Shown: piece by piece, positions 7,838-42,740 of the stretch | Layout of the letters: each line of letters opens with the position of its first letter | Position numbering within the stretch: the stretch's first letter is position 1 | From: Protoeuglena noctilucae | Taxonomy: Eukaryota | Length of the DNA stretch: 64,000 nucleotides | Assembly (NCBI GenBank): GCA_958009085.1 | Contig: OY253673.1 | Coordinates: forward strand, 744,001 to 808,000 | Reading direction: 5' to 3' | Program-made: the position numbers and the translations under genes | Notes under the pieces: model-generated | What the model was told of the DNA's origin: nothing | What the model saw: the letters and a program-made list of their open reading frames with translations, nothing else | The model's database searches: none

Positions 7838-10800
7838 ATGAACCAGGTGGGCGGACGCGGCAGTGATGCGCACTGCTTGAACGCGGCCGCCCGCAGCTGG
7901 GGTGCACGCTGCCGCCCAGAGCCATCGCGACGCTGCGATTGCGCCGCCATCTCGCAGGCCCGACAGACGCCGGTCGGCCAGCACCGGTCGCCCGCAAAAA
8001 CGCCCGCGACGGGGGCGCTTGGCCCTGCGTGCTCTGGGGAGGACGAGATTGAGCCGCCCTCGCCCCCGACCGTGCAAATTACCGGACGGAACGCTAGTAG
8101 AGGAGTCGACTATGCGCCTGTCGACGCTGCTCCGGGCGCATACTCCTCGGCGCCGCGCCCCAGCCAGGGTGCGGTGGGCCAGGGTGGCTCCACGCGCAAA
8201 GCTGCGACCGGCGCCCAGCCGCGTCTCGCCCAGGTGCCGATTCCCGACCCATTCGCGCGTATTGATCGTCGCACCCCCCCCCCCCCCCACCCGCCGCAGC
8301 CTCACTTCGTGACCTCGGCCGCCCCCGCAGCTGCAGCTGCAGCATGCCACGCCCGTCCCGATCCATTTCCCGCGTGACAGCGCTTCCCCGGAGCCGCCGT
8401 GCGCGACCCCCGGCTTTCGCTCGCAGCCGCACGCGCCCCCGGGTCCGGCGCCTGACGCCCGGGGTCCCGCCAGCCCCGGCCGTTGCGGTGAGGCTGGGGG
8501 CCAGGTGGACTGTCCTGGGATCGACGCATTGGGTCTCAATTTGGCTGACGAGGGCGATGAGTCGGACAGCAATTTGGAAAGTTTTAATGGTGATGATGAC
8601 GGGGATGGCGATGGTGATGGGGATGGTGACGGGGCTGGGTTGGGAGGTGGGGAGGGCGAGTCGCCGCCTGGGCCCCTGGTGCAGCCGGGTGATGAGACTG
8701 GGCGTGGGCAGGGTGGGTGCGGTATGGGGTCTATCGTAAATGTTTTGAGATCCAGAAATGGACGGCCGGAGGTGCTGGTTGTGCACGATATTTACGATCT
8801 ACGGTCTGTCTGGGTAGATGATGCAAAAAAGGGCAAAGTAAGCAGTGGGAAGGAGGAAGAGGTGGATGATGTAAAGGAATGGGCGTTGGGTAAAGCCTGG
8901 CTGGCAAGGATGGATTGTGCGAGGCACAAAGGGGTTGATGCTGTAAACATGGGGGCGGGTGATGGGTTGCTGATAAATGGTGGTGGTAGAGGAGAAGGGT
9001 TGATGGATGACGGGAGGCAGAAAGGGGTTGATGCTATAAACAGGGGGCTGCTGATAAATGGTGGTGGTAGAGGAGAAGGGTTGATGGATGACGGGAGGCA
9101 GAAAGGGGTTGATGCTATAAACAGGGGGCTGCTGATAAATGGTGGTGGTAGAAAGGAAGGGTTGGGGAATGAGCGATGGCTGGCCAAAGAAGACGATTTG
9201 GATATAGGATTACAGGGGGGTGATGTGGGCCAAAAAAGATCCAATGCTGTTGTCAGGGAAGCTGAGGGATATCATCATAGTCATCATAATCTAACTACAG
9301 CACATAAAGTGGGTCAAGGAGCTATGCCATTGAGCGTGGAGTGCACAGCTACCAAGGGTGGTGTGCAGAGATTGTGCACTGGAGTGAGCGGGAGTTTTGC
9401 AAATAGGGTGATTGAGCAGGGCAGCAAGGGTGGTGGCAGCGATATCGCAAGGCATGGCGTGGCTGGGTGCAGCGGCGGGGGTGCCCACATGGGGGTGGCA
9501 GAAGTGGGGGAGTTGGGTCAAGGAGATGGGTTAAACAGCCAATCGGATGGGCGGGCTTTGATGGGTGGAGATGACCACTGGGGCGGTGCGTGGGGCGACG
9601 GTGGCGGCTTTGGTGGCGGCGATTTGGGAGATGGGCTGTGGACTGATGAGCGCTCGGTGAGGGGCGCCTGGGTGGCGGAGTGAGGTATTGGGATTGGATG
9701 CCCTTAAACCCTGACTGTCAGTCGTGTTGCCGTGCTCAAACTACTGCTGTCAACGTCCATTCACCTGCATGGATGGCCACTTCACTTGCATAATCCCCAC
9801 ACCTATGCTGTCACTGTCCAGTCATCTGCATCCATAGCCACCTGCATATGCAACCACCTCAGTCCCTCTCGCTCACTCACCCTCCCCGCCCTCCGCGCAG
9901 GTGGACACATCAAGCCCCCACCAGCCCAGCGCGGCTGTGGGCCCTAATGGAGGGGCGGGCTTGAGGCCGCATGTAACGCCGCCACCTCTGCGGGGCAGCA
10001 GCGAGGCGGGCGTGCACGGCAGGGCCCTCGCCACACCGCACGCGACATGCGCCACGAGCAACGTGCATCGATGGGGCAATGACCTGCTCGGCCTGGGCCT
10101 GGGCCTGACTCAGGCCGACGCTGGGGGCGCCAGCGAGGGGTCCGCGTCGGATTCTGACAATGCCGACATGTCAGACTCTGGCGCTGACTCCGGCGCTGCG
10201 TCAGAGTCCTGGGACAGCGAGGGTCTTTACGGGGACTCGGAACCCGAAGCAGACGAGGCGGTTTCTGACAAACGCGAATGTGGGAATGGCATCAATCGGG
10301 ATGGGTTGAGTGGGATGGGGTCAGGCGGTGCAAAGGGCGAGGGTGTGCGGGTGGGGCTGACGTCACTGGGGATCGAAGGGGCACTGCGGAAAGAGCCAAA
10401 AGGCGCGGGGAGGGTGCTGTGCATCTCTAGTGACGACGAGGGGGAGGGCCGCGGGGTGGGGAGGGCCTGGGAGCGTGCGGGGGTGGCGGTGGCACGCGGG
10501 GCGGGTGGGCCGGCGGGTGGCGGTGCGGCGCAGGCAGCGCCAAGCATGCACATGCGCGCGCAGCAGCCGAGCGGGCGGGCGCGCCAGGCGATGATTTTCG
10601 GGGAGATCGGCGCCGCGAGGCCCGGGGCGCCCCCTCAGGCCCCAGCGGGGGGTGTCAGGGCCACCCCTGGTGTCGCTTCTGTGATGGGGCGTGGGGCGGG
10701 GTGGGGCGCGAGACCAGGCCAACCCACGGCGCCCCCGCCCGCGGCTCCGGTCGACGTCGATGACGATGACTATGACGCGGACCTGATGGCTCAGCTGGAC

Positions 10801-11667: not shown

Positions 11668-14600
11668 TCACTCCGCCCTCGCCCCCCGCCCCAGCCGGAA
11701 TCGCAGCGGACCCCGCCCCTGGCCCCGGCTGCTCCCCGGCAGGTCCCTCAGCCCCCCCAAACGCACATGTTGCATGTCGGCGGGCAGCGGTGGCAGCGGC
11801 GGGAGCGGCCCTAATGCAGGCGTATTGTTACTGCTCTCCCAGCCAGCCCCGGCAGGCGCTTGCAATAAACCAAAATCCGGCAGCGGCGGGAGCAGGTCGG
11901 GCGGTAAGAGCTGAGTTGCGTCACCCAGGCCGGCCCCATGCAACCCCACCGCTCCCGCCCCCGCCCCCGCCCCTGCTCGCCCCCGCCTGGCCGCCCTGCG
12001 ACCCCACCCTGCACCCCACTCTGCCCCTTCGCCCTCAGCATTCCCCTCGCCATCCCCGCCGCTGTGCCCGGGACCCTCGGTGCCGCGGTGGCTCCTGGTC
12101 GGCGCGTCGTCCTGCAAAGCACGAAGCGAGGTGCGCGACGTGAGAAGCGAAGCACGATGTGCACAAGTATGGCACTTGTGCACACATCGGTGCAACCGCA
12201 CTGCGCACCCTCCTGCCCACAAACACGTCACCACAGCCACCCATGCGGACACCCCACCCACCACCGCTGCACCGCCCACCCAACCCTCACACCACCCCCC
12301 TCGCCCAGCCCCTCACCTCGACGCCCCGCCTCGTCGCCTTCGTCCCCCGCCCCTCCCACTCCTCCTCCGCACCCTCCGATTCTGACGCCACCGCCGCCGC
12401 CAGAGCACGGTTCGCCGCCTCCCCCGCCCTCCTCCTCGGCCGCCCATTCCCACCCACACCCCCACCCATCCCATTCATCCACCTCATCCCCATTCCCACC
12501 CCGCCCCCGTCCCCACCCATGTCATTGCCCAGCCCCCCATCCAACCCCGCCGCTCTCCGCCGGTCCCGACGCCCACCCCCGGCCCCGCCCAGCCCCGCGC
12601 CCGCCACCCTCCCGGGCATGAAGGGTGCGTCCGGCTCCCGCAGCATGTTCTCAGGCGCACTCGCACCCCCGCCCACACCCCCGCCCGCACCCCACGCCCC
12701 GCCAGCCCCCGCGGCACGTGACCGTGTCGCCACCCCCACCCCAGCACCCTGCCCAGCCCCGCCCCTCGCCCCCCGCCCGCCCCGCCTCCGGTCCCTTGCA
12801 CGGCGACTGTTCTTGCGATTTGAGATGTCGGAATCTGACGTTTCAGTGAACGAGTCCTGGCGGCCCCGCTTGCGCCCCGGGCCTCTCTTGCGTTTCGCAT
12901 GATCAGACGATGGCTCGGATGCGCTGCTGCCGTCGTCCATTTCCCCCGCGTCCGGGACGTCGCTGAGATCGGAATCATCCCCCGAGGCATCGCTGCGGGA
13001 GAGGGAGGGGTGCAGGTGTGAGGTGAGGTGGGTGTGGGTGAGGTGGGGTGGGTGCGGGTGAGGTGGGTGCAGGTGGGGTGGGTGCGGGTGAGGTGGGTGC
13101 TGGGTGAGTCGGTGAGCCGGCACAAGCAGCTTAGTAGCCAACGCCCTCTGCATGACCACACGCCCGACGCCCTGCCACCGCCTTTGCATATGAATGACAC
13201 CCAATCGCCTCTGCATTCAAACACAACCCCACGCACCTCTGCCACGCCGCCCCCCTCCTCGCCCTCCCCCGCTGCCGCGCCCCCCTTCCCATGTCGCCCG
13301 GCGGGGCGGGGGGCGGGGTGGGGGCCACCACGGGCGCTGGGCCCGGCAGCTGCCCCGCCTCTGCCTGACGCTGGAGGTCCTGGGGGGGCGTAGAGGGGCG
13401 GTGGAGGGTGTTGAACAGAGGGAAGTGATGGAGAGACGGTAGAGAGCGTTGAGAGGTGTGGTGGGAGCGAGTGTGGATGTGCACGGATCGCTGGGTGAGA
13501 CACATGTTGGCGATGCGCACACACACACACACGCATCGGTCAGACATAGCTCGCCACCTCCCTCACCCGCAACAGTGCTGCCCACCACCTATCTCACCTG
13601 CAGCTCCCCCACATCCACCTCCCTCACCCACCCACCCACAACACCCCACCATCTCCCTCCCTCACCCGCAACTCCCCCACATCCACTTCATCCGCATCTC
13701 ACCTGCAGCTCCCCCACATCCACTCCCCTCCTGGCCCCCGCCTTCAAAAACGTCGCCACCGCCCGCGCCGCCGCCGCCAACTCCGCCCCCCCCCCCGCCA
13801 CTGCCACCAGCGCCACGTTCCCCGCCAGCGTGTCGCAGTCGTGGTCAAACGCCTGTATTTGGCGGTAATACCCCGATTCGATCCGGGACCTGATGTCGAG
13901 CAGGCCGAGGGGCAAAGGGACCGTGCGGTTGTAGTAGCGGCCGCGGGTGGCGTCCCGGCCGGTGGGGAGCCACGTGTCGAAATCGGGGGCGGTTAAGAAA
14001 GCGGAGAGGTGGGCTGCAAGGAGGGAAGGGAAGGGTTGAGGTGAGTGATGGTGGTGGTGAGGGGATAGGTGGACTGGGACTTTGCCATGATGTACAGATC
14101 ATAGTATTGATCATAGTATTACTACCACCAATGCACGCCTGGTCATACAAGTCTCACCCGCGAAGGGGTGCGCGGGGTCCTCGGCCAGCGCAGTGAGCTG
14201 GGAGATGGCCGCCAGGGCCCTTGCAGCTTCGGGCAGACGGGTGCAGGGGTGGGGTGGTGCGGGGGTGGCAGCGATGGTGGTGTTGGCAGTGGTGGCAGGG
14301 GTGGTGGTGTTGGCAGTGGTGGCTTGGTCGGCAGTGGTGGCAGTGGTGGCAGCGGTGGTGTTGCCCGCATCAGTCGCATGGTCGGTTGATGCCAATGATG
14401 CGGGGAAGAGTTCCCAAGGCGAGTGCATCTCCTCCTCCCAATCAGACATGTCCACGGGACTGCGGTGATGATAGAAAGCGGCTTATATTACTGTCAGTGG
14501 GAGATGTGCAGGAGTGGGACTGCGATGGCAAAGATAGAGGACCGAACACGCCCGTGCACACACCGATCATCCACCATAGTGCACCCGCTATCACATCACC

Positions 14601-15470
14601 TCGCTGACGCTATGCACAGCCTCATTCATCCACACCCACATGTTCACCCCCCACCCTCACCTGCCCGATCCCACCCCAGCTGCCCCGCCCTCCCCACCCC
14701 CACCCTTCTCCCCATCTCCCTCCTCTCCCTCTCCCTCTCCCTCTCCCTCTCCCTCTCCCTCTTCCTGCGTTACACCCTCCCCTGACTCAGGGAAGTACCG
14801 CACGCGGCAGGTGTCCCACAGGTTGGCCCCCGGGTCCCCCAGCCCTGACGTTTCGGCCTCCGCCAGAACGCCCGTGTACAGGCGACCACTGGGGGGGCAG
14901 GGGAGGGCGAGATGCGTGGGTGAGATGCAGTGGTTTGTCATTCACTATAGTTACAAGATATGATATGTGCCAATTGTGAGGGACCTATGCAGGACGTGCG
15001 ATGTGAGAGCGCCGCAGCTGACGTGCTGTGCGCTCCCTGCCACATCGTGCTCCGCTCTCGCCTGACCGGGTCCTCCGGGTCGAATTCCTCGTCGATGGCG
15101 AAGGTGGCCACCCTGGCGCGGCCCACACCATCGCGCATCACAGATACCCCATACTGCGACAGTGGGGGACACGAGTCGTGTGTGAGCAAGGATGGTGACG
15201 TTGCATGCTGCGAGGATAGGGGACACGAGTTATAGGGCATGCTACTATACATACATCTACACACACAAGATGACATTGCATACTGCAGCAGGGACACAGC
15301 GCTACCACTCCCCTCACCACCATCAACACACCCACCTCACCCATCCTCACCCTCACCCCCCAGACCACCCTCACCCCCACCCCCGCCTCCCTCCCCATCA
15401 CCTCGTATCTCTCCACACCCACCCACTCCCTCACCTTGTATCTCCTCACCAGCACCACAACCATCCCACC

Positions 15471-15521
<51 letters not shown>

Positions 15522-18500
15522 CACAACACCCTCCCCACCATCCACCCTCACCTCGTATCTCTCCACCAGCACCACAAACTCCGCGCACCCCCCCAGCAGC
15601 GGGTGCGGCACGGGGCACGTGAACCGCCTCCCCCTCAGTGGGTGCCCCTCCCCACTCAGCTCCAACTCCACCACTGCCACCGTCGTGTCGTCAGCCCCGG
15701 GACCGGACGATTTGATATCGTACCGCATCCCCACCACAGTGCAAAACTCCGTCGCTCGCATGCCGGGGGTTTGTATTTGTGTTGGCGGTGCGGGTGGGCG
15801 GGATGCTGTTGCAAACGCGTTTGCGTCGCCAGTCACATCCCCGCTGAGCCCGGCGGCTGCGTGGGGATGCGCGGAGCGGGACCGCGTGGGGATGCCTTGC
15901 TGTTGTTGTGGTCGGGCGTGGAGGCGGTCGATGGCCGCTTGCACTCTGGCGCGGGTGGGTCTTGCCCCGGGCTGAGTCAGGGCCGAGGGGGGCCAGAAAC
16001 GCTCGGCGCCGGGGATGGGGTCCAGGAGGGGGACGCCCAGCTGCTGCCAGGGCTGCGGGGGGGAGGGGGTGGGTGGGTGAGTAAGTGAGTGGGTGGTTGG
16101 GTGGTGGATGGGGTGAGATATGGCAAGGGCATGCTCAGCTGCTGCCAGGGCTGCGGGGTTATGAATGGGTGGTGGGTGTTGGCTGAATGGACTGTGGATA
16201 AGCCGATTGCAACTCAGTGAACATGTGGATTGGGAATGGACGGTGAATGCATGGATGGGTAACTGACTACCCCCCCCCCCCCCCCAACCCTCACCAGCAG
16301 CGCCTGCGACCCCTCTTTCTTGCAGTGATATGCCAGATGCCCCTGTGCCAGATACACCACCCGGTCGCCCACTTGAGGGACATACACAAAGCGGGGCTGG
16401 CGGAGCACACGCAGCCAGGCGTACTGAAAGAGCTGCCGGGGGCCGCGGCGGGAAGCGGCAGGACCGAAACGGACGCGGCTGCTTGCATTTGCATTCGCAT
16501 TTGCACTTGTACCCACACCCGCACCCGCACCCTCCCCAGCCCCGCCCGCACCAGCGCCCGCTCCCCGCCGCTGCGCACGTCGCTGCCGCTCCCCTCCCGC
16601 CCTCGCTGCCGCCCTCGTCGCCACCCTCTGCCGTGACTGCAACTGTCGCCTTTTACTCCTCCCACCCCTCCGCCCTCTCCCACTCGACTCGCTATCGCTC
16701 CCCTCCATCACACTCGCGTCCTCATCACTGGTACTCGACTCATTTGCATCAGACCCATCCCCAAGCCCCTCATCGCTCTCATCACTCACCACTCGCCGCA
16801 CCCCACGCCCACCCCTCACCCCCACCCCCATCTCCCCACCACCACCATCATCACTGGAGTCTTCCTCATACCCCACCCGCACGCCCCGCCTCTCCCCCCC
16901 ACCCCCGCTACCCACAGCCACCCCATCGCTGCCATCCCCACCCCCACGCCCCCTCAATGCACGCCCACGCCGCTCCGCCCGCCCAGACCGCCCCTCTCCC
17001 CGCCCATCGTCCCCATCTCCTTCATCTTCATGCAAACCCTGTTCATCCGTGTCACTGGTATCGTCCTCCAATGCGTGTGCTTGTGCCCGGGTGCGGGTAC
17101 GGGTGCGTGGTCTGAGTCGTCTCCTGGGCAATGCAGTGGTCGCTGTTGCAGTAGCACCTGCCTCTGCCTCTGCGTCTGTGTCGGTGAGGTGCGGGCGTAA
17201 GCGGGAGGAGCGGCGCACGCCGTCGGCTGCGGGGGCGGTGGGGGCGGTGGGGGTGTGAGGGGCTGGTGGTGATAGGAGGTGGTGGGGTGCAGAGCAAGCG
17301 AGGTGTTGATGTGTGTTACTATACTGTGCAAACCGCGTTGATTGTGCAAATCTCTGCCATCCTTGTCACCCCACCCCGCCCCTCACCTCCCCTCTCCCCC
17401 TCCCCCTCTCCCCGCCCCTCACCTCCCCTCTCCCCCCCTCCCACACCACACCCCACCACACCCCCGCCCCTCACCTCCCCTCTCCCCCTCCATCTCCCCT
17501 CTCCCCATCTGCCGCAGCCGGGCCGACCGACGCTCGCCCTCACGGCCACCGCGGGACGACCTGGGGTGATGGAGCACAATTGGTAATGGTAGATAGTCAG
17601 TTCGCTGTTACAGCATGTCACCATGGAATCATCTCGTCATCGCACCCACCCACTAGGGCTCGCGACACCATCACTCCAAGCCAGTTCACCCTCACTCACC
17701 CTCACTAACCACCCTCACCCACCCAACCCCACCCTCCCACCCTTCTCACCTCCCACCCCCACCCCCACCCTCACCCATCCCTCACCTCCCACTCCCCACC
17801 CCTCACCCTCACCCTCACCCAATCCCCTCACCTCCCCACCCACCCCACCATCTCACCCCACCCCACCCCTCACCTCCCACCCCCGCCCCCCTCATCCGTC
17901 TCGTCACTCCCCCACGCCCCCTCCCCATCCTCATCCTCATCTGCGGCATCCATCTCAGCCTCAGAAACCACGAAATCCTCATCCATTACATCCGCCAAAT
18001 CCAACTCCACATCCCCATCCACCCCACCCTCCCCATCCCCCTCCCCCGCACCCATTGCCGCCCCCCCCGCCCCGCCCGACCCTGACTCAGCCCTCTCGCT
18101 GTCTGTCAGAACCACCAAATCGTCGAATGGCAGCGGCAGCACAGCCCCGGCCGGCGCCCCGGCCTGCCCCCCACCCCCCACACCCACCCATGCATCGTCA
18201 CCATCATCGCCCATACCCATAGTAGTACCATTGGTGTTGATACCCATACCCATAGTACCCATCGTACCCATACCAACCCCATCCCACCCCGCACCCCCCC
18301 TGGCATGTCTCCTGGCTTCTGCCTCCAATCCCATGGCTATGCTGCCCGCCCTCCCCGTCAGCCCCGCCACTCCCCTGGGCATGCGGCCGCGGGGGGGCAG
18401 CATACCATTCACCTGTGAAAGGGGTGGGGGTGTTATGATGAAATTTCACATGTAGTTGTTTGTATGTAGTGCAGATGCATGAGAAAGGGCAGCTTCCCAT

Positions 18501-21500
18501 TGACCCACACTGCTAACCCCCACACACACACCTACCCTATCCCCCCACACACCCCCCCCTCTCTCTCTCACCAACACTGCCCCCAGCCCCGTGCACTCTC
18601 TGTCCCTCACCATCAACACTGCCCCATCCCCATACATGCACGCCCCCTCACACTCCCTCTCACCGACACCGCCCCCACAGATCCACACAACCCCACACCC
18701 CCACCCCCACCCACCCCCACTCACCGACACCGCCCCCAGCCCCGTCCCCCGGTGCTCGGCCCTCAGCTGCCCCGCCCGCCACTGGTTGTACCGATCAAAC
18801 ACGGCATTCACCGCCCTCTGCACGGCACGGTCGTCGCCCCCCATCTCTGCGGTGATGAAGCAGGCAGCGGCGACCACCGCGGGGGCCTGGGGGGGGGGGT
18901 GAAGGGTGAGGGTTAACTGTTGGTAAGTCAACTGAGTGAGGTAAATGGGTGGGGTGAGTGGGGTGGGATGAGTGGGTTGAGCGGGGTGAGTGGCAGTGGG
19001 TTGAGAGAGGCGAGTGGTGAAGGTTTGGCCGTCTCTCAGCCAGACATCCAGCCCTGTCTCGCGCAGTCTCCCACACACAATCACTTCTTCTGTAATCAAT
19101 CGATGCTTCGCCAATCACAGCTTCTCACCATGTTAATGACGGATGGCACGGGTGGCATGGGCTGGCCGGGAGGGGGGCGCTCGTGGGCACTGGGGGGGGG
19201 GCAGAGAGAGGGAGATGACTGACAAAAGCAGTACTGTACATGTTGCGTGACGCACAGCACGTTGATCGGTGCACGACTCGTCGTTTGCTGCAGCATGTCG
19301 CATGCCACACATATCAACGTGAGGACCTCAACCTCTTTGACAGCTACCCACCCCCAGCCCCTTCACCCCAACCCCTCTCCCACACCCACCCTGTCACACC
19401 ACCCCTCTCCCTCACTACCACCCACCACACCCCCACCCACCACAACCAACCACCCCTTCTCCACCCCCACCCCCCTCACCCCAGCAAGGCCTGCAGTCTC
19501 CTCTGCCCGAATGCCCTCTGGTACGAGTCAGGGTAGGTCTCCCCCATCACATCCGTGAGGCTCTCGCAGCCCACGCGGCTCTGCAGGGGAGGGGAAGGGT
19601 GGGTGGTGAGGGTTGCTGATCGGTGAGCGATGATGAGGGGTGGGGTGGTGGGTGTGGGTGTGGGTGAGGGGCCCTCACAACACGCGGCTCTGCAAGAGTG
19701 GTGATGTCATCTTCATATTGTTGTTAACCCAATCACTCAGTGACCCCAATCCACCACCCAACCACCCCCACCCCCTCACCCTCGGCGGCTGCAGCGAGGC
19801 CGCGTCCACCACCGCCCCATCCACCTCCTCAACCACCACCTCACTCAGTGCTATAATCACCCCAATCACACACCGCAATCACACACCGCAATCACCCAAC
19901 ACCCCACCCATACTCCCTCACCCTCGGCGGCTGCAGCGTGGCCGCGTCCACCACCGCCCCATCCGCCTCGACCACCAGACCGTCGTAGTCAGATCGGTAG
20001 AACTGGTCGTAGTGAGCGAGGGCCATGATGGATGCGGGTCCCTGACCGTACAGCAGCAGCTGCCCGGCCCCGTCTGCCAGGGCCAGGCGAGCGCCCGAGG
20101 GGGCAAAGCGGCCGTCCAGGATTTGAATCGCGTCGCAGCCGCCGCCTGGGGAGACGTGGTAATATGTGGTGTGGTTTGTCAAGATGCGATCAAGGTATTA
20201 CTAAGAGATGGAGACAGGTACAAGCAAGACCATGACTCGCATGGCGTCGCAGCTGCCGCCTGGCTGCGCCATACTCGCAACTACCCCATCCACTCCCCCC
20301 CACCTGGCTGGCTGTGCAGTGTGTCGATGACCCATACACACACTCCCATCCCCACTCTCATTCACCTGGCTGGCTGTGCAGGGTGTCGATGACCCTCAGC
20401 CTCTTGCCCCGCGCCACGTCCCAAAACACCACGAAGCCATCGTAGCCGGACGTCACCGCAACGCGAGGGTCTGCGGTAAATGGAGATGGGTGAATGGATA
20501 TGGGTGCATATATATGAGTACGAGTGTGTATGTATGGGTGCGTGTGCTTGCTCGTCATCGCACACACCCACACACCAACACACACACCCACACCCTCACC
20601 TGTCGGGTGCTGCTGCAGCACTTGCACACTTCCACACACACACCCATACACACACCCACACCCACACCCTCACCTGTCGGGTGCAGCTGCAGCACTTGCA
20701 CGCTGTGCTCGTGCCCCCTCATCGCGTGCCTCTGCGCGCCCGTCTCGCTGTCAATCACCCGCACCGTGTAATCCGACAGCGTCAGCACCAGGTGCCGCCC
20801 GTCCGCCGTCAGCTCCATGTGAGTGACCAGGAGGTGGGGGGCGATGGGCTTGCGTCTCGCTTTCTGCGGGAAGGGACACGAGGGGTGGTGAGACTCGTGA
20901 TACTCGTGATGTGCGATGATGTATATGACTATATGGTATTTGAGTAACCCTGTCATCTCTACTTGCCGCGCCACCCACCTCCGCGCCACCCCTCTCACCT
21001 GCCACGCCACCCACTCCTCGTCGTGACTCAGCCCCGCCGCCATGCGCCGCGTCCACGACACCGCCCCCTCCCCCGCCCCCACCTCCCCGCGCAACCGCCA
21101 CCCCACCACCTGCCCATCCCTGCCCGCCGTCCACAGGTCATGACCGTCCCGAGAGAACACCAAATGCAGAGCCGGGCCGTCGTGGGCCCGCAGAGCGTCG
21201 CAGGGGATGGGGCGCGGCCACTCGCTGAGACGGCTCGTCACTTGTGCCGCACCCGCACTCGCACCCGCGCTCGCCACCCCGCGCGCAGCGCTGCCCCGGG
21301 CGCCACCCCGCGCCCTGACGCGCGGCTGCCGGCCGCGGCCCGACTGCCCTTCTCCACCGCGCGCCTCCTCCCCAGCACCACTGAGGTTGTGTATGGGCCT
21401 CAATGCAGACACCCCGTCATGCGTGTGTGTGGCGGCCCCACCACTGCTGCTGCCTTCCGCACCCCACGGCGCGTCCCTCTCTGTGCCTCTATTGCCCGCA

Positions 21501-23825
21501 CTGCCACCCGCATTGCCACCCGCACCGCCACCCGCACCACCACCCGCACCGCCACCCTCGCCAGCCCCGGGCGCACCCACCATCGCCCCCAGCCTCGTCA
21601 CCTCTGCCTCCCCCTCCCACAGCCACACGCACACCAGGCCCGTGGCAAACCCTGCCGCAATGAACCTCCCGCACGGGCTCACGCACAGACCCATGCACTC
21701 ATTGCGACCGGAGCCATCTGCCGCACCCGCACCCGCACCCGCACTGCCACTCACACCCGCACCCGTACCCCCTCGGCCCTGCCTGCTGGCGTCCGCCCCA
21801 GACCCACCACCACCCGCAGTGCCACCTGCACCGCCACCCGTACCACCCGCACCACTTATGTCCCCGAATGGCCGGAGTTCGATGCAGCCGTTGGCCTTGT
21901 CCAGAGCGTCCCACAGCCGCACGGTCCCATCGGCACCGGCGCTCACCTGCGACCCAAGGGCATCAATGGGCAGTGATGGGCATTGCTAGGCGTTACATGG
22001 CATCGATGGGGAATGATGCGCATTGACGGGGCATTGTTCATGGGCACTGCTGAGCGTCATCGCAGGGCATTGGCAGCTGAGGGCATTTGTAGCTGAGCAT
22101 TCCTTAGCACCCGTTGGCATCGCTGGGCACTGCTGAGCGTGCCCGCTACCGCAAATGCTGGGGCACGGCGCAGGGGTCACTCACGAGCACTCTGGGCACG
22201 TGGGGATGGAACGCCAGGTAGTTGACGGAACCCTCGTGTCCCTGCAGCAGGCCACGCAGCTCGCCCTCCCGGCCAGGCGAGAGGTCCCACAGCGCTGGGG
22301 GTGAGGAGGGCATGGGAGGGCATGGATGAGATTAAGCACACGCGTGCTGTAGTGTCAAGAAGGACAACACAGTCACGCAGAGCGACACTGTTGGCCCCCC
22401 ACCAATCACTTGTGCAGTCAGTCACCCCACCGCACCCCCCCTCACCGATCCTCGAGTCGACCAACGCCGATGCCACCCCAGCACACCCCCCACCACATCC
22501 CTCCTTAAACAACATCCCACTTCATTGCATCTACCCTACCCCACCCCACCGCAACCCCCCCTCACCAATCCGCGAGTCAACGGACGCCGATGCCACCCGC
22601 CGCCCGCACGGCGACACCTGCAGGTCATTGACCTCCGCCGTGTGGCCCCTCCCCGTGGCGATGAGGCACCCGGTGATGGCGGACCAGAACTTGACCAGAC
22701 CGTCGTCCGCGCCCGTCATGACCACGGATTCGTCCCTCGACCACGCCACGCAGTAACTCGCCACGCTGCGAGCGGTGCAGTGTGGGCTCGGATTAAGTCG
22801 CAAAGGCACTTAACTGGGAAATGCTTAGATTACGGGGTCACACGATCACCACCCGCCCATGCACCCGCATGCACACACCTGTGCCCCCGGAAGGTCCGGT
22901 GGTGCCGCAGGCTGCCGACGTAGGCCTCCGGCGACAGCATCCAGTGCTGCTGCGGGCGGCGGGGCGCGCGCCCGACCTCGCGCCCCGCTGCCTTGCGGTA
23001 GGTCGACCCCCGGGTGTAGGGGTGGCGCCGGTGGGGCGGCATCCCCGCCGTCACCGACGCCGCGCCTCCGGCATCTGCGAGCGCACGCAGCGAGATGATG
23101 TAAAAATAGAGATATCGCCGGGCGCGTCAGGGTGCAGCGGGCCGCGCAGTGCGCGTCAGACTCACCGGCGTCGAGAACGGAGAAGGGCGGGGGGCACAGC
23201 GGCGAGCAAAGGGACGCGCGGCCCGGGAGCCTGGTGCCCGGACCCGCGGCCTGCCACGTGCGGAGGAGGGCCGAGATGGCGTCGGGGAGAAACGCGCCGG
23301 GCCGAGTCAGCGTGCGGGCCACGTCAGACGGGTCCTGCTGGTGAAGCGCCCCGGACAGGCCCATGCGCAGCGGCAGGCGTTTCGCGCCGAGAGTTTCGCG
23401 CTCGAAGACCTGCGCGGGCGAGCCGAGGGCGCGGCGTTGAGGAAGGCGCGGCGGGGCACAGCGCAGCACGTCGGGTGCTGCAGGATGCGCGGACCCACCT
23501 CGGCGGTCTCAGAGTGGCCGGCCCCTTGCAAGTAAAGCAACACGAGCATGTTGAGATCGCGCTCGTCGATTTGCAGGGCCCGGGCGCCCGGACCGGCGCC
23601 ACCGGGGCCTGTGGCAAGGTTGGGATGCTGCGCCGGGCCCGAAGCGATGGCACGCGGAGACGGCGCCACCCCCCGACCATCGCCACCCAGTGCTTCTGCT
23701 TTGTCACCCGCCCCGCATCTGGCCACCTCCCGCGCGTCGTGGGCGCTGCCCGGCGTCGCATGGCCAGCCAATCCCACACCAGACGGGCCCCCTGCGTCGC
23801 CATTCCCGGTCGCGCTGCGCGACAT
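11668..23825 (-). CDS. WD40-repeat and bromodomain protein, PHIP/BRWD family (many exons)
   Basis: N-terminal LisH-like segment (ERDLNMLVLLYLQGAGHSETAE). WD40 repeats (FRGHR..YCVAWSRDESVVMTGADDGLVKFWS; VSAGADGTVRLWD; TSGYDGFVVFWDV). Family motifs YDQFYRSDY and YVPQVGDRVVYLAQGH, and bromodomain PLGLLDIRSRIESGYYRQ. The 3' end is uncertain. Confidence 0.88.
15471..15521. repeat. Intronic (CACCCT)n microsatellite, i.e. (GGTGAG)n on the sense strand
   Basis: About 8 perfect hexamer units next to a BRWD donor site. Confidence 0.9.
21957..22165. repeat. Degenerate intronic minisatellite rich in GGGCAT/GGGCAC
   Basis: Recurrent gggcat/gggcac at roughly 10-20 bp spacing. gggcactgctgagcgt occurs twice. 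Confidence 0.6.
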
Positions 23826-24521
23826 CACGGCCACACGCGGATCGCTGATGGACCCGCGTCCTCGCGCGCTGCTCTGGGAGCTGAACACCGCTTCCTGCGA
23901 CGAAGGGAGATGAACATGCTCGTTCCCGGCATCGCTTGCGCCGGAGCCGAGAGAGCAACGCATAGAGTCCGATGGGACGGCGCGCGCAGCAGCGGCCGCG
24001 TCCCCCGCGCCTCAGTCCGTGGGATCCGGCACGCGCTGCAGGCCGTGCCGCCCCGCCACCCCCTCCCGCCCGCCCGCCCGCCGAGCGCGCGCCCGCGTTG
24101 GGGAGGTCCCTCCCCGCGTCTCGCCACCTGAAATATCGCGCTGCTCCGGGACGGGTCCGGCGGGAGGCCTGGGAGGCCTAGAGGCCGGCCCAACCCTGCC
24201 TTCCTCCTTGGGCCCCGTCTGCCCAGCCGAGGCTGGTGGGCACGGGGAGAGCCGGGCTGCGAGGGCCCGCGAGTCCCTTGCTCTGACCACCCGTCCCTCG
24301 AAACGCAAGTTCTTTTCTTCCGCGCAAGATACAAGCAACCGACGCGCTGGATTGCGGGCGGGAGAACCGCAGCCGGGGGTCGAGGGGTGCGCTGTGAAAC
24401 CCAATTCTGACTACTCAGGCTTTTCGCGCTCGCCGCCAGGCCAGAGCTCGCAGTTCTCATCTGCATTGTCGCTATCGAATCCGTCAGCTGGCCACCTGCT
24501 CGTCACGTATCGCCGCCGACC

Positions 24522-26144: not shown

Positions 26145-27753
26145 CTAGGCGACGGCGGGTGTCGGCTTCCCAGCCCTGCTCATCCACCGCTTGTAGAAGA
26201 CGGGGAAGATTGCCGCGAGCATCATGACGACCATGCCGAGGACGGTGGCCGGGGAGTAGAGGTCCTTCATCTGCTTGATGCTCGCGATGGTGCTCCCGGC
26301 CTTGACCAGGAGGAGGTTGCCCGGGAAGAGCCCAGCGAAGGTGGCAATCGTGTACGTTGTGAAGGGTACCCTGCGTGCGAGAGGCGGGGGTGGGGTAGCT
26401 TGGCAGGGATCGTGATGTGCTGTGCTGGACTATGCAGTGGGTGGGTACGGGCGCCAGAAGTCGAAACGTGCTGTGTCAGCAAGTGGGGTGCTCTGGCCAT
26501 GGTACGCACCCGACGATGGGGGAGGCGAGGTTGATGAAGAAGTTGGGCGCGACGGGGGACATGCGTATGGCGACGATGTAGCTGGCGAGGTCGGTGCGGT
26601 TGTGGGCGACGGTCGCCGAGAACTGCGTCAGCTGTCGTGGCCAGAGGGAGTGGGCCAGGTCCACCAGGAGCCACGCGGCGAGGCCGTAGGCGATGCAGGA
26701 CCCCAGCGTAGAGCACGCCTGCACGACGGCGAAGGCGCTCCAGAAGGGCAGCAGGGACCCGGCCATGGGGTTGAGGAACAGCACGCCTGGGATCATGAAG
26801 GACTGCATGACTAAATAAAAGGCGACGAAGAAGGACGTGACGCGGCCGGGGGCCACGGACTGGAGCACCGACAGCACCGCCTGCATCTCCTGGGCGTCGT
26901 GGAGCGAACGGGGGAGGCGGAGGAGCGACCCGCGGCGGAGGGCGGTGGCGGCGCGCAACGCGAGGGCCTCGCGGGCGGGGTCAGGGACGGTGTCGAGGAG
27001 TTCGGGAGCGGCGGCGCGGAGGGCCGCGTCGGTCTCCCCCGGGGGCCCGGGCGGCAGGAGGCCCCCGGCGCGTGCCAGGCGGACCTCGAGGGACAAGCGC
27101 GCCGCGAGTGGGAGGTCGTCGGCGGTGGGGAGGGAGCGCGCGAGGGCCCAGACGCCGAGGCAGGAGAGGAGGAAGAGGGCGAGGACGGCCGCGAGGGACG
27201 CGGCGAGGTGGGTGGCGTGGAAGCGCCGCTTGCGCCGCGCCGCCTCGGCTGCTGGGACGGCGAGGTACTTGGGGAAGCCCAGGACGCGGCGGGGGCGGAC
27301 GTCCTGTGGCAGAGAGGGATGAGGGAGGTGAGTGGTCGGGAGCCTTGGAGGGTGGAAGGATGGTCGCAAGCGGGTGCAGTGGCTGGGGCGGCTCACCTCG
27401 ACGGCGAGGGAGCGCAGCCAGAAGGAGGCGGCCGGGGCGGAGGGCGATGCGGTGTCGTCGCTGGACAAGCTGCCGTCCTCCGCCGCGTCCGGGTAGGGCG
27501 CGCCCTCCACGTCAACGGTGGCGTCCGTGCCCTGGCTCGACTTGCCGACCTTGCGGGCCAGGATGCTGGGGCCGGGGGGGTCGCGGGCGGCTCCCGACGC
27601 CAGCGCTGAGTTGTCTCGACGCAGTAACCCCCCCGCGGAGGGGCCGTGGGTCGGCGCGACGCGGTACGCGGAGCTCTGCCCTGCCTCCAGCTCCGAGGCC
27701 GCGTGCTGGCGCGGCGAAGCTGCTGTGCAGGCCCGGCCGGCCAGCCACCGCAT
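26145..27753 (-). CDS. VTT/DedA (SNARE-associated Golgi, TMEM41-like) membrane protein
   Basis: YLVMQSFMIPGVLFLNPMAGSL...CSTLGSCIAYGLA...YIVAIRMSPVAPNFFINLASPIV-GVPFTTYTIATFAGLFPG. The start may extend upstream to about 28052. Confidence 0.85.
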
Positions 27754-28845
27754 CAGGAACCCGCCCTGCGCCTTGCCGGCTGCGCGCGGTGTCCGGGGCG
27801 ACGCCGGATGCCGCAGCACGGCCTCGCTCGGGTGCAGCTCCCTGGGGCCAAGACACGTGCTGGGTCGCTGCGGCGCGCGGGCTCGCGACCGGCGCCCCGC
27901 GGCGATTGCAAATGTGTCCTCACCTTCCACTCGCGCTGCCCCAGGTCACGTCTTCCTCGCCCGCCCGTCCCCTTGCGCTCGTGGGGCGCCCGGAATGTCG
28001 CCCGAGATGGCCGCCCAGGCCCCATCCGGGCCCAGTGCGGTTGGTCCTGCATCGAGAGGATAGTGGGAAATTCAAGTCTAGATCCCCGCGAGCCGCCCTC
28101 GCCGGCCCCCGGGGCGCCAGGCCCCCCGTCGTCGCCCAAGTTGGGCACGTGTGCCGCGGGCGCGCCGGGCTCACCCGCTGTCAACATGCGGGTAGCCACG
28201 CTCCCTCTGCTCAACGTATGAGACGTTGGGCCGCACGCTCGGGCCTGGCGGCTCGTCCTGGCCTCCCCAGCCTCTGCCCAACATCTCCTGGAAACCCCCG
28301 CGGCGATCCGCCACGGCGCCTTAGGTGCCGAGGTCTGAATGCGACGCTTAGCACAAAGCGCTGTTCTACTGCGAGACAGAAAATCGAGGGGAAAGGGTTT
28401 ACGCATTTACGCAGCCACCACATTTGTGATAGCGGGACAGGTTTGCATGGGCAGCGGGCACGCCAACTGATGGCACGGCTCCATCAAGCGTGCGATGAGA
28501 AAGCTCTGCGGTGAGCCAGGCCCCGCAGCCCTATTCACATAAGCAACGCGGCCCGCCCCACGGCATGGGGCGGCGTGGGGCGGGTCCGACGACAGCATTC
28601 CCGTCGAATTATTCAAACGCAATTACGAGCAGCATGAGGAGCGGTCACCTTCTTGGGAAATAAAGGCCAGGGACAGAAGCTGCACTCGTCCTGAATGACT
28701 TAAAAGCCATACGCCAGCCTGCCGCGCGCAGTCAAGCGTCAACATCCACATGTACACGGCTTCACGCTCGGGCGCGGACGGACGTGGTGGCAACCTAAAA
28801 TCTGGCGTGCCGCACGACACTTGCAAGCGACTTCTCCCGCTGCTC

Positions 28846-39342: not shown

Positions 39343-42300
39343 TTAAAATGCGAAATCCTTCACTGGCGCTTGGGCGCGGTCCACGGCCGACGCCAGGAGC
39401 CACCGATAGCTGACCACCGGGACACCCTGGGCTGACAGCTCGCCGATGGTGGTCTGGTCCCTGAGAGCGGTGGAACACAGGCGACACTGTCACAAGCACC
39501 ACCAACTAAGGCCTTGGGGAAGGGGTCGATGTCAGCGTGGCGCGTCGCGATTGCCACGACGATGTCACACTTGCTAAGACTGGCTTAGGCAAGGCGACGA
39601 GGCCGAAACAGCGCAGGTCGGTGAGTTATGCGACGTGCCCCGCCGCGGCTCGCCTGGTGCGGAGGTTGTCGGGGTCGCATACCACGACGGCATCAGTGCC
39701 TGCCCCCGGTGCGACCGACAGCACCTCGCCCCCCAGCAGCTCCACGATGGCCTTGACGTTGCGGTTCATGACCGGGCCCGTCTTGAACTCGCCCAGCACG
39801 TACACGCCCCGGCCACGCAGGCACCCCTCGGATGGGCCCTCTCCTGTCCGGGCGCTCTGCAGAGGGCGTACATGCGTACATGCGTAAAGCCGGTTCAGTT
39901 CATCACAAAAGCAGGCGAGGGTATCGAGGCCCACAAATGACCAGAAATTGGTCCAGGGAGGAGACAAAGCAGCACAGCTTGCCGTACTGGTGTGCCAGGG
40001 GTCCCAGCGCACCCCTGCCGTCTGCTCTGCGCCAGCTGCGCTGTTGCATGCACCACACAAACCGCACCTCCGCGGCGCCGAAGCTGCCCTCGGTGTCGCC
40101 TTTGACGAAGAATGCGCTCTCGTCCTGCGGTGCGCCCGCCTTGGACGTAGCCTGGACCCACTCGGGGGTCAGCACCCACGCGCCCGACTGCGGGTGGGAC
40201 CATGTGTCTAACCATGTAAGGTGGTGGCAACGCGTTGATGGACACTGTTGCATGCATCGCTGCGATGAGCACCTCCCTCGCCCAACGTCACCCAAGCGTC
40301 ACCCAGCATGCGACAGTCATCGACACCCCACGCTGTTGCATGCACACACCCACACTCATAGAAGCACGCACCAGCAGTCCCAGCGCGTACTTGGCCGTCC
40401 GCTTGGCTGCCCCCTGCCCGTCCACCCCGCACACCACGTGCGTCACGCCCGCGTCCCACTCATCCACGTAGACGCACCCGAGACGCTTGGCCAGGGCCTC
40501 CAGCGACCCCCGCTCCTTGCCGCTGAGGCCGGACCCCGTGATGCGCCACCCAAGCGACGCCATGCGCCCCCGTGCACCCCCGGCCGCCTTCCCAGCCGCC
40601 TTCTTCCCGCCCTGCCCGCGCCCCGCTCCCTTGGCGCCCTTGCCGCCCTCCGCCCCTTCGCTCCCCGCCTCCTCCAGCCGCGCCAGAAACGTCGCGCCCC
40701 CGTCGCCGTCGGCAATCCCCTCGCTCGCCTGCTCCGGCGTCGCATTGGCCGTACCCCGAGCGCCCTTCGACCCACCCCGGGGCTTCTTGGACGCCCTCGC
40801 CTCCTTGTCGGTCCCCACCCCGCTCGGACCCGCACCCGCACCCCGCTTCGCCCCGCTCTTCGCCCCGCCAGCCCTGCCCGTGGCCACCCCGTCCTCGTCC
40901 CCCTGGTCCGCCCCACCCTTCCGCTTCTTGCCCCCACGGGACTTGGCCCCCACCCCCGTCTCTGCAGCCCCGTCCCTCGTCGACTGAGACGCCGTCAGGA
41001 TCGGATCGATCTGCTCCTCCAGAGCCTTCTGCTTCAGGACCACTTCCTGCAGGGGTTCACGAGCACAGGCGTCAGCGGCAACAGCGACATGGCCATTTGC
41101 AAAAAAGGTGGTGGTGCTGCGTGAACAGGGACGCAATGCTGCCGGTAACCCTAAAGTTTCCACAGACATCACGAGGTGGCAACCCTTGCAAGGAAGCCAC
41201 CTCCTCTTGCCAGTCACATGACCCCCACGCACCTCAGGCGGCTGGTCGGCGCCCCGGGGCACACGGCACACGCGGCATTCCTTGGCCTTGGCCTCGTTCT
41301 CGAAGGTGCAGGCCGAGCAAGCCCACGGAGCGTGGCGCGCGGAACCTCGCCGCTCCGTCGCCGGCGTCGGTGCCGCATCGGCGACCGCGGGTGCGCCACG
41401 GGGTGGCATAGAAGCCCGCTTGGCGGCCCGCCGCGCAGCCGCAGCACCCATGCCCCGCGGTGCAGTTGCTGCCCCCTTCGACTCCGCCCCAGCGTCAGAG
41501 ACCCCCGCTTCCAAGGCGTCAGCAAGTGGCGCCCGCTCGCCGCCCTCATCGCGCTGCGCATGACCCGAGCCCGTGTAGTTGTACGGGTCGCTCTGGCGCT
41601 TCGTGGCATCGCCCTGCGCCTTCTTGCGGCCCGCGGCCTCATCTGCTGCGTTTGGAGGCGCTGCTGAAGGTCTGCCTTTGGCCCCGCCCTTGGCCTGGGT
41701 GCCAGCGCCCTCCTTGGCCGGTGGGGTCGTCAGCTCGATGTCCTCGCCGGGGGTGCAGAGGACCGCAGCGAGCGCCGCGGGGTCCGCCGCGGTTGCCATG
41801 GGCGGCTCTGCTTCGTCGTCGGCCCCTCCAGCCATGTCCATGTCAGGCGGCGGTGCGTCTGCGTCGCCCGCCTCTTGCGGGGCGCCGGGCGAGTTGGAGC
41901 GCCGCAGGGGCAGCGGCCCAAACTTGTCGTGGGAGCTGCGGTGACAGACATATGAGGCGTGCTCAGCTCTCTGTGAAGGGCAGCGTGCGACCTGGGCTGG
42001 GCAACCCACATGCCAGCATGATGAGAGGCGCCGTTGCTTTGCAACCCGTGGCGTGTGCCGCAGCGTCTCACCGGGACGCAGATTTGGCGGACGACGCCAC
42101 GGACTGCCGCTTGCAGCGGATTCCCAGGGTGGCCCCGCGCCTGCCCTGCATGAGGAGCCGCTCGCGCGCCGCGTCCTGCACCAGGTCGTTGCGGGCGCGG
42201 TCGGGGGTGCGTAGCTCCGGGAGCTGGCTGCAGTGCTCCTGATGACCCGTGAGCGCCTCCAACATCGCGTAGTGCTGGGAGATGCGGTGCAGCTTCGCGT

Positions 42301-42740
42301 CGCCCTCCTGGCCCCGGGAGATCCTGCGGGCATCGGGCGACCGGACGTCGGGACGCGAGATGCAAAAGGTTGAGGTGAGAATGCTCAGGCGCGCGCGCGA
42401 GCGCACTTGACGGGCTGCTTGCACGTCGGGCACTCCTTCTTGGCCTTAAGGTGCTGCGTGAGGCATCCCCTGCGCGGGGCGGGAAGAGCGGGCGGCGATA
42501 TCGAAGAGACATGGGTCATGATGATACCAGAGGGCACGCAGGGCCTCAGAAGCGCGCAGGCGCGCCGCTGCGGGGCGGGGCATGCACAGCGTGTGGCGGC
42601 GCTCACGGGCAGAAGTAGTGGCAGCATGGCGTGCGGATGGGCGGCTCCCGGAAGATGGACAGACATATGGGGCACTTAAGCTCGGTTCCCATGTTCTCCA
42701 GGGCCTGTAAGGCCGTGGAGGGCACCTCCAGCGTGGGCAT
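39343..42740 (-). CDS. BRCA1/BARD1-like protein: RING, RanBP2-type zinc finger, two BRCT domains
   Basis: N-terminal LQALENMGTELKCPIC...CLTQHL...ECPTCKQPV RING. WACSACTFENEAKAKECRVC zinc finger. BRCT1 (WDAGVTHVVCG...KRTAKYALGLL-SGAWVLTPEWV) and BRCT2 (VELLGGEV...VPVVSYRWLLAS). Confidence 0.82.

Follow-up and report, generated by a model that had tools for sequence, protein, structure and literature searches.

In several introns of a gene of the green alga Protoeuglena noctilucae, the last stretch of the upstream exon recurs, imperfectly and together with its GT donor, a short way inside the intron itself. Are such copies generated at splice junctions by a process that favours them, are they kept because they do something, or are they what remains visible of ordinary local duplications that the gene can tolerate? 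The gene, which we call BRWD-like, lies on the minus strand of a 64,000-nucleotide stretch (assembly GCA_958009085.1, contig OY253673.1, positions 744,001 to 808,000 of the forward strand), here called the window, in whose coordinates all positions are given. Its coding sequence occupies ~12 kb, from 23825 down to 11668, and a hand model checked by translation comprises 23 coding exons (E1-E23) and 22 GT-AG introns (I1-I22); the frame of the translated model is open across E1-E17 and E18-E23, and the candidate donors of I17 are GT dinucleotides in the required phase at 15043, 15022 and 14995. We use 'echo' for a copy, inside an intron, of sequence spanning one of that intron's own junctions: a donor echo repeats the upstream exon end plus donor, an acceptor echo repeats the AG and the first part of the downstream exon. 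The reading we prefer, at a probability of roughly 0.6, is that echoes are relics of frequent short direct duplications that are tolerated at junctions, with no mechanism specific to the junction.

Junction copies and their specificity

A first-pass annotation had listed 13 pairs of real junction and echo, and all 13 align as it claimed, at identities from 15/19 to 28/28; the copy it described as exact over 28 nt, at 13591-13618, is indeed exact (28/28). The main pairs were also recovered independently by a repeat search (repeats D6, D7, D10, D11, D13, D17 and D18). All echo copies are in direct orientation, and every feature of this gene described below lies on the minus strand.

Two donor echoes are near-clean tandem duplications. 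In I7 (20560-20707) a 74-nt unit, consisting of ~31-34 nt of exon and ~40 nt of intron, places an echo donor at 20599 behind the real donor G at 20673; Tandem Repeats Finder (TRF) reports period 74, 1.9 copies and 88% matches, and identity is 66/77 (86%) over the whole unit and 45/47 over the echo pair. The I8 unit (20272-20401) is 62 nt long, with its donor G at 20365 and echo donor at 20303, and the corresponding identities are 52/65 (80%) and 32/33; a probe made from the exon end (see below) scores 28 in this intron against 12 in the others. The I4 echo (22423-22480, within a feature spanning 22423-22600) lies 120 nt downstream in the transcript from the real junction (22543-22600, donor G 22565), matches it at 50/55 positions and has a probe score of 20 against at most 8 in other introns. 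In I9 (19694-19980) the unit reaches 142 nt, 57 of exon and 85 of intron, with donor G at 19921 and echo donor at 19779; the repeat search returns 102 nt of it at 81% (D10), and the pair itself matches at 60/63.

Other junctions are followed by two or three echoes. The I12 junction (18565-18750, donor G 18724) has three, at 18643-18679, 18606-18626 and 18565-18597, with spacings of 61, 92 and 153 nt and identities of 19/19, 15/19 and 24/26. In I14 (17374-17506) the donor G at 17474 is followed by echo donors at 17422 and 17386 in an array of period ~52/36 (TRF period 52, 2.4 copies); the two echoes match at 27/28 and 28/28, and the three donors are equal in score. The I16 junction (15389-15582, donor G 15551) has echo donors at 15434 and 15401, matching at 28/31 and 19/19, between which lies a perfect (GGGTGA)-type hexamer array (TRF period 6, 8.7 copies, 100%). 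In I20 (13585-13733, donor G 13702) an older, degenerate echo with its donor at 13665 (24/26) is accompanied by a younger, exact one with its donor at 13597 (28/28). Measured over whole units rather than the echo alone, identity is 78% in I14, 71% in I12a, 70% in I20 and 64-67% in I4, I9, I12b and I16, I12a and I12b being two units of I12. Marginal cases are I6, where a very short echo absent from the earlier list lies ~24 nt inside the intron (20964-21014), and I10 and I13, which are of low complexity; the junction-spanning repeats of I13 (17744-17896) have spacings of 88 and 124 nt, and its probe ranks only third. The first three introns, I1-I3, are short, not G-rich and free of echoes.

The first-pass annotation had omitted counterparts on the acceptor side, in which AG and the beginning of the downstream exon recur at a distance of 54-114 nt before the real acceptor. 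I8 and I15 have strong examples; those of I9, I16 and I12 are weak. In I8 (20116-20267) the AG and exon 9 start at 20116-20153 recur at 20230-20267, which puts the acceptor echo 114 nt before the real site; identity is 82% (D20) and the probe score 18 against 10. This echo abuts the I8 donor echo, so that the sequence upstream of the copy is non-homologous to the real 3' part of the intron. In I15 (16025-16164) the copy at 16123-16164 corresponds to the acceptor and exon 16 start at 16025-16066, with a spacing of 98 nt, 78% identity over 49 nt (D15) and a probe score of 18 against at most 11. The weaker I9 copy (19571-19706) pairs 19680-19706 with 19571-19597 at a spacing of 109 nt (73%, D19; 21/27) and ranks first among 22 introns and second among 34; that of I16 (15150-15231, spacing 54 nt) matches at 22/28 and is not of rank 1.

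The echoes are specific to their own junctions. When the last 30 nt of each upstream exon were compared with the exon's own intron and with the other 21, the own intron gave the top score in 10 of the 22 cases against a chance expectation of 1 in 22 (binomial P = 1.5e-8); first rank was reached, clearly or marginally, by I4, I6, I7, I8, I9, I12, I14, I16 and I20. Typical own-intron scores are 20-28, as against 8-15 in other introns, and 7 of the 10 first-ranking matches extend to the last base of the exon and continue with GTGAGG, GTGGGG or GTGAGA. With the set extended to 34 introns by adding 12 from two other genes of the window, nine rank first, eight in the BRWD-like gene and one, marginally, elsewhere; I6, which had scored 15 against 12 among the 22, ties at 15 and falls to rank 2. 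Inverted repeats specific to a junction were looked for and none was found, those detected being low-complexity matches between G-rich and C-rich intron arms. The own-versus-other-intron comparison thus bears out the earlier statement that each echo belongs to its own junction and does not represent a transposon family.

The arms themselves reflect a strongly polar base composition: a GC skew of +0.43 or more characterises the 5' third of 17 of the 22 introns, and the 3' third has a negative skew in all 22. Units resembling GGGTG or GGTGAG in the 5' arm could pair with CACCC-like units in the 3' arm. Folding z-scores against shuffles within thirds run from -2.5 to +0.7 in 20 of the 22 introns, the exceptions being I7 (-5.9) and I22 (-6.1); an arm hairpin was dropped as an explanation of the echoes, pairing beyond that of composition-matched shuffles being confined to these two introns. 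Micro- and minisatellites are abundant near the junctions of the gene. One intron is atypical: I5 (21947-22184) has no G-rich arm and contains many repeats of a degenerate 10-16-nt unit with an ATGCCC-type core.

This common appearance, G-rich in the 5' arm and C-rich in the 3' arm, might suggest that the introns descend from a repeated intron-generating element and that echoes are its target-site duplications or parts of it. Introner elements are known from marine algae, where they were reportedly described by Gozashti and co-workers in 2022, and the introns studied here likewise are those of a marine alga and have a recognisable shared style. Introners, however, form multi-copy families with shared sequence, whereas echo matches are confined to their own junction; the copies sit beside the same-side junction rather than at opposite ends of an insert, the complementarity of the arms is compositional by the z-scores just given, and inspection by eye revealed no family-wide core in the central parts of the introns. 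On this sequence evidence an introner origin appears already contradicted here, and we consider it very improbable.

That the echoes are products of assembly or polishing is harder still to credit. Low-complexity, G-rich and repetitive regions of this kind invite such errors, and metagenome contigs do break at several of the simple arrays. Short-read contigs from the marine metagenome of a different study (X5), however, cover 12789-13796, 14772-15460, 15532-16285, 18889-20560 and 21034-24400, and pass through the echoes of I4, I8, I9, I15, I16 and I20 without one differing letter or gap. Over the echo regions covered by this single independent DNA sample there is likewise no copy-number polymorphism of the variable-number tandem repeat kind, which is a weak test. 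A run labelled as organism B (X12) contains identical pieces beside AT-rich foreign sequence, and we rejected it as a relative in favour of the same organism in another sample; a search of metagenome contigs with exon 9 matched 593 pattern stretches, none of them encoding a relative.

Duplication history and the junction as a possible target

Echo cores measure ~20-80 bp and their spacings 24-153 bp. In a comparison of the stretch that follows copy 1 with the stretch that follows copy 2, controlled by 500 shuffles, homology between spacers is present or hinted in I20, I12b, I13, I9 and I16, where 3 to 39 of the 500 shuffles reach the observed score (3/500 for I20), while the spacers of I7 and I8 are trivially short (14 and 11 nt). 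The copies had been described as separated by non-matching spacers and not as clean tandem duplications, which holds for I4, I12a and I14 and fails for I7 and I8. Several junctions also preserve a sequence of events. In I20 an older 37-nt duplication is nested within a later one of 105 nt. Of the copies in I14, I16 and I20, the more exact is the one lying farther from the junction, as would result from later duplication of a larger unit that already held the junction together with an older echo. These relationships support the view that duplications recur at one junction in rounds of different age, as far as can be judged from the sequence, and the direct orientation, proximity and locus specificity of the copies support the proposal that local duplication lengthens these introns.

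How far the junction stands out among targets was assessed with a local-repeat scan of the gene, in which 12,378 probes of 24 nt were each compared with about 40 non-local blocks. Donor-spanning repeats occur in 10 introns, acceptor-spanning repeats in 4 and intron-internal repeats independent of echoes in 6, and exon-internal repeats are confined to low-complexity coding tracts. A geometric model, placing tandem duplications of the observed sizes at random and retaining only those that leave the mRNA unchanged, predicts for I4-I22 that 51% should span a junction, against 14 of 20 observed (p = 0.12); the preponderance of donor over acceptor echoes (10 versus 4) gives p = 0.18. The suggestion that junction-spanning copies are preferentially generated is therefore not supported, junction-spanning duplicates being not significantly commoner than the general rate of short duplication in these introns would yield, and no junction-targeting process is required. 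Copies that contain exon sequence are, moreover, easier to detect than intron-internal ones, since selection preserves one of the two copies and since they are not made of low-complexity sequence.

The process we envisage is simple. Short direct duplications would form within the G-rich 5' portions of this alga's introns and close to them, some as plain tandem events and others with unrelated filler separating one copy from the next. Where such an event fell within an exon, the protein would be altered and selection would remove it; one inside an intron would be neutral; and so would one straddling a junction, provided that the spliceosome kept to the outermost sites, which on the donor side means the 5'-most and on the acceptor side the 3'-most. 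Of the two copies of exon end plus donor, or of acceptor plus exon start, the inner one would then become intron and decay. As the duplicated units amount to a third to a half of intron length, about half of all tolerated duplications should straddle a junction, and this geometry, combined with the recognisability of the exon-derived part, yields a high density of echoes without a junction-specific mechanism. Both the neutrality and the rule that the 5'-most donor prevails are what we infer from the evidence assembled here; the molecular route would most likely be break repair with fill-in, or slippage, as has been described for small tandem duplications.

The main competing idea is that breaks or template switches favour the 5' splice site region. 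Possible causes would be polymerase-theta templated insertion and the formation, on the G-rich non-template strand just past the donor, of R-loops linked to transcription or of G-quadruplexes. The two nominal excesses point in that direction, as do the repeated events at the same junction in I12, I13, I14, I16 and I20 and the extreme excess of G over C in the 5' thirds; the unrelated spacers of I4, I12a and I14, too, resemble copy-paste more than tandem duplication. Neither excess is significant, however, and detection favours copies that contain exon; template switching often yields inverted copies, yet none of a local junction is present, and I10, I15, I18, I21 and I22 are G-rich without clear donor echoes. 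On balance we think targeting of the junction unlikely.

Splice-site choice among duplicated donors

Echoes had been expected to supply extra donor motifs, and they do: in a leave-one-out donor matrix, 13 echo donors are intact at 7.6-13.3 bits, compared with 6.6-13.3 bits for their real partners. What the spliceosome makes of them can be seen in part from metatranscriptome contigs (X10), which are blind to rare isoforms. These stop aligning exactly at the exon ends 14158, 15552, 16052, 19922 and 23166 while the records continue, and several of the ends lie beside echo-bearing junctions (I9 donor, 19922; I16 donor, 15552; I8 acceptor, 20144; I15 acceptor, 16052). Use of the real splice sites is also required by the reading frame of the translated model. 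A further set labelled as RNA (X9) was excluded as evidence of splicing, its contigs running through introns (13252-13523, 14331-14665, 23196-23456). The tabulated joints between aligned contig pieces were mostly cross-matches of low complexity, with no genuine splice joint among them.

In 7 of 12 cases splicing at the echo donor would put the sequence out of frame; of the 5 in-frame cases two would meet a stop within 11 codons and three would insert 39-51 codons, the stop-free insertions belonging to I12 (spacing 153) and I16 (spacings 117 and 150). A comparison of mismatches between echo and original, 15/96 in the donor part and 30/240 in the exon-derived part (Fisher p = 0.48), revealed no selection on echo donors; that the donor part has diverged like the exon-derived part argues against selection either to keep or to kill them. 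The distribution of strong donor motifs (at least 8 bits) is markedly asymmetric, with 2 in 7,117 nt of exon and 39 in 5,041 nt of intron, a difference in density of about 25-fold, although the matrix was built from G-rich donors and G-rich intron arms consequently score well by composition. Of the 39 intronic motifs, 35 lie in the first half of the intron. This asymmetry fits splicing at whichever strong donor comes first, those behind it being passed over.

Could the additional sites nevertheless be retained for a function, as enhancers of U1 binding, decoys, intermediates of a recursive type or regulated alternative sites? Echo donors are at full motif strength, 3 of 12 would give in-frame, stop-free insertions, and many exon ends finish in AG, so that their copies carry an AG|GT pair. 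Yet the donor part is no better conserved than an exon-derived part lacking any conceivable signalling role in an intron, and motif strength is kept largely because changes stay G-rich. The frame-shifting majority and the two early stops speak against a function, the RNA contigs use the real sites, and echoes are missing from about half of the G-rich introns, which work nonetheless. We regard functional retention as quite improbable.

Several observations weigh against the tolerated-relic reading that we prefer. The silence of echo donors rests on few assembled RNA contigs, unable to show rare isoforms, and a duplication of an exon-intron junction in humans has reportedly proved pathogenic, so that junction duplications are not universally neutral. 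With counts this small, a real bias could lie behind the nominal junction excess (70% versus 51%) and the preponderance of donor echoes. No spacer homology was detected in I4 (56-nt spacer; 332 of 500 shuffles reach the score), I12a (202/500) or I14 (394/500); judged by their spacers these would not be simple tandem duplications of the full spacing and would need a filler or copy-paste step, and the I8 acceptor echo is likewise not tandem. A probe consisting of exon sequence only ranks first in 8 of the 22 introns of the BRWD-like gene as against 1 of 12 in the two other genes, and the neutral model does not explain this concentration of long, exon-containing echoes in one gene. To these must be added the compositional advantage that the donor matrix gives to G-rich arms.

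A bolder extension, which we hold to be doubtful, is that in this alga small duplications seeded at an intron's own splice junctions act as a ratchet and may account for most intron growth, each being invisible in the mRNA and neutrally fixed while the spliceosome commits to the 5'-most donor or 3'-most acceptor; the G-rich 5' arms would then be the residue of decayed and re-amplified donor copies. If this were true, a single process would underlie how long the introns are, what bases they are made of and why exons are depleted of donor motifs, and each region of the genome would hold dozens of natural 'duplicated donor' experiments.

Precedents and the wider window

The first-pass annotation knew of no description of such copies, a statement that needs correcting on two counts: there is a single-gene precedent in intron 7 of human F7 (IVS7; PMC1557585), and tandem repeats near junctions in algae are in print (PMC3887541). 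According to the accessible text of the 2006 report on F7 (PMC1557585), the first unit of a 37-bp minisatellite spans the exon 7-intron 7 boundary, and mutagenesis showed the identical downstream pseudo-donors to be functional yet silent behind the most upstream donor. The likeness is close in I7, I8 and I14, where the first head-to-tail unit spans the exon-intron boundary, and the donor motifs of the downstream copies are, as in what can be seen of the F7 array, equal or close to the authentic one. In F7, as described in that text, a single intron of a single human gene carries a regular 37-bp array, whereas here at least 8-10 of 22 introns are involved together with some in neighbouring genes. 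The copies here number one to three, their units measure 24-153 nt, many have unrelated spacers, they differ in age, and they have counterparts on the acceptor side, all unlike the human array as far as that text describes it. The silence of pseudo-donors was established in F7 by mutagenesis, on the same text, and rests here on few RNA contigs and on the asymmetry of donor motifs between exons and introns.

For green algae, the accessible part of a survey of two species reports that the density of tandem repeats is highest in introns and that they are over-represented close to intron-exon junctions (Zhao et al. 2014, PMC3887541), and introns featuring tandem repeats are described as common in Chlamydomonas in the available text of PMC9977147. 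The present gene resembles what these texts cover in belonging to a GC-rich green alga and in its micro- and minisatellites near junctions. The text of PMC3887541 that is accessible gives density near junctions and no units that include exon end and splice site; the word 'splice' is absent from it.

As to mechanism, small tandem duplications have been traced to double-strand breaks with 3' overhangs, filled in by CST-guided Pol alpha-primase and then joined end to end (Schimmel et al. 2021, PMC8355091, in its accessible text). Like those duplications, as far as they are described there, the present ones are tens of base pairs long, their copies direct and placed head to tail and requiring at most a little microhomology, and filler at the joint in repair of this type would explain the unrelated spacers. 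In the text consulted the mechanism is shown in mouse cells at engineered breaks; here slippage, unequal exchange within existing arrays or templated insertion might also be the route. The duplicated segments of the BRWD-like gene also invite comparison with a known route of intron gain.

Tandem duplication of exonic AGGT sequence is said to have given rise to introns in work by Hellsten and co-workers in 2011 and by Ma and co-workers in 2016. Intron gain by tandem duplication of an exonic segment containing AGGT is also described in the accessible text of Lehmann et al. 2010 (PMC2891723). There, as in the introns described here, a short tandem duplication copies splice signals and one former-exon copy becomes intron. 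The AGGT model, however, creates a new intron whose 5' start copies the downstream exon and whose 3' end copies the upstream exon, whereas here an existing intron is lengthened: the best copies of upstream exon ends lie 35-151 nt from the donor and not at the 3' end of the intron, and copies of downstream exon starts lie 74-84 nt from the acceptor and not at its 5' start. These positions do not fit intron gain of the Rogers type.

Our literature search returned only single-locus cases and no multi-intron description of own-junction copies, most subscription journals and supplements lying outside it. The density seen here is unusual, a dense, multi-intron form of a known phenomenon, and makes the gene a good natural system for the study of donor choice and intron growth. 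Its junctions are natural tests of how the spliceosome chooses among identical neighbouring donors, a question addressed in animals mostly with one human minisatellite and designed constructs. Should the pattern prove genome-wide, it would provide a countable route of intron lengthening in GC-rich green algae and would explain the accumulation of tandem repeats beside intron-exon junctions, giving the enrichment reported in the accessible text of PMC3887541 a concrete reading. There is also a warning for annotation, in that full-strength pseudo-donors and some pseudo-acceptors beside copies of coding sequence can mislead gene predictors and spliced aligners.

Regarding the gene itself, its product has a Pfam WD40 match on exon 4 (E = 7.5e-13) and further WD40-type matches on exons 6-7, and the WD40 propeller feature of BRWD/PHIP-type proteins is thus present in the N-terminal half. 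The C-terminal part has a single Pfam Bromodomain match of 19.9 bits, under the 21.7-bit cut-off, and weak sequence matches in PDB to the bromodomains of ASH1L (E = 0.0026) and polybromo (E = 0.008); exon 16 gave no match. 'BRWD-like' is a fair label for this architecture, judged from sequence similarity, and does not prove membership of the family. Upstream of the coding sequence, an intron of the 5' untranslated region lies at about 23895-24127, one RNA contig joining 23893 to 24127; it has neither an echo nor a G-rich arm. Low-complexity repeats that keep the frame are present in coding exons 19, 6 and 22, their periods being 9, 12 and 27 nt (14243-14385, 21248-21855 and 12443-12712, minus strand), and they seem to reflect the same duplication-prone behaviour where the protein tolerates it.

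The region has a GC content of ~66%, the nearest named homologues of a neighbouring gene are from Chlorophyceae and Trebouxiophyceae (42-48% identity), and 81-90% of the region's sampled words are present in marine metagenomes. Within the window, locally specific repeats cluster in the BRWD-like gene and in two others with the same style of intron, and the same polar composition is found in introns at 57315-60007 (minus strand) and 53939-56612 (plus strand). The ~30 kb between 24000 and 53000 are free of locally specific direct repeats and of G-rich donor clusters, and several long open frames there consist of a single exon (for example 26479-27945, 40291-42384 and 46477-47745), so that the genes of the window differ sharply in intron load and style. 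Outside these genes, an 81-nt unit is present in three head-to-tail copies at 94% identity (8917-9165, plus strand) within a long G/A-rich open frame at 8313-9680.

In the two other genes, short donor-spanning copies with no more than ~11 nt of exon occur in 3 of 12 introns. Two are in a second gene, which encodes a chorismate-binding enzyme (Pfam Chorismate_bind) on the minus strand: one at 59087-59206 includes ~11 nt of exon at a spacing of 83 nt, the other follows a donor near 57581 at a spacing of 167 nt, and their identities are 29/35 and 19/23. The third gene, on the plus strand, has one at 53928-53991 (spacing 44 nt, 17/20). Also in the third gene, at 53431-53500 on the plus strand, a 10-nt unit ending in AG is repeated immediately at a possible donor, and a second short duplicated stretch, containing GTAAG, follows after ~30 nt; both may be junction duplications in miniature at a candidate donor. 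Two further introns of the plus-strand gene open with short tandem arrays, one running from the donor at 55020-55105 with a unit of ~39-46 nt and the other at 55321-55390 with a unit of ~24 nt.

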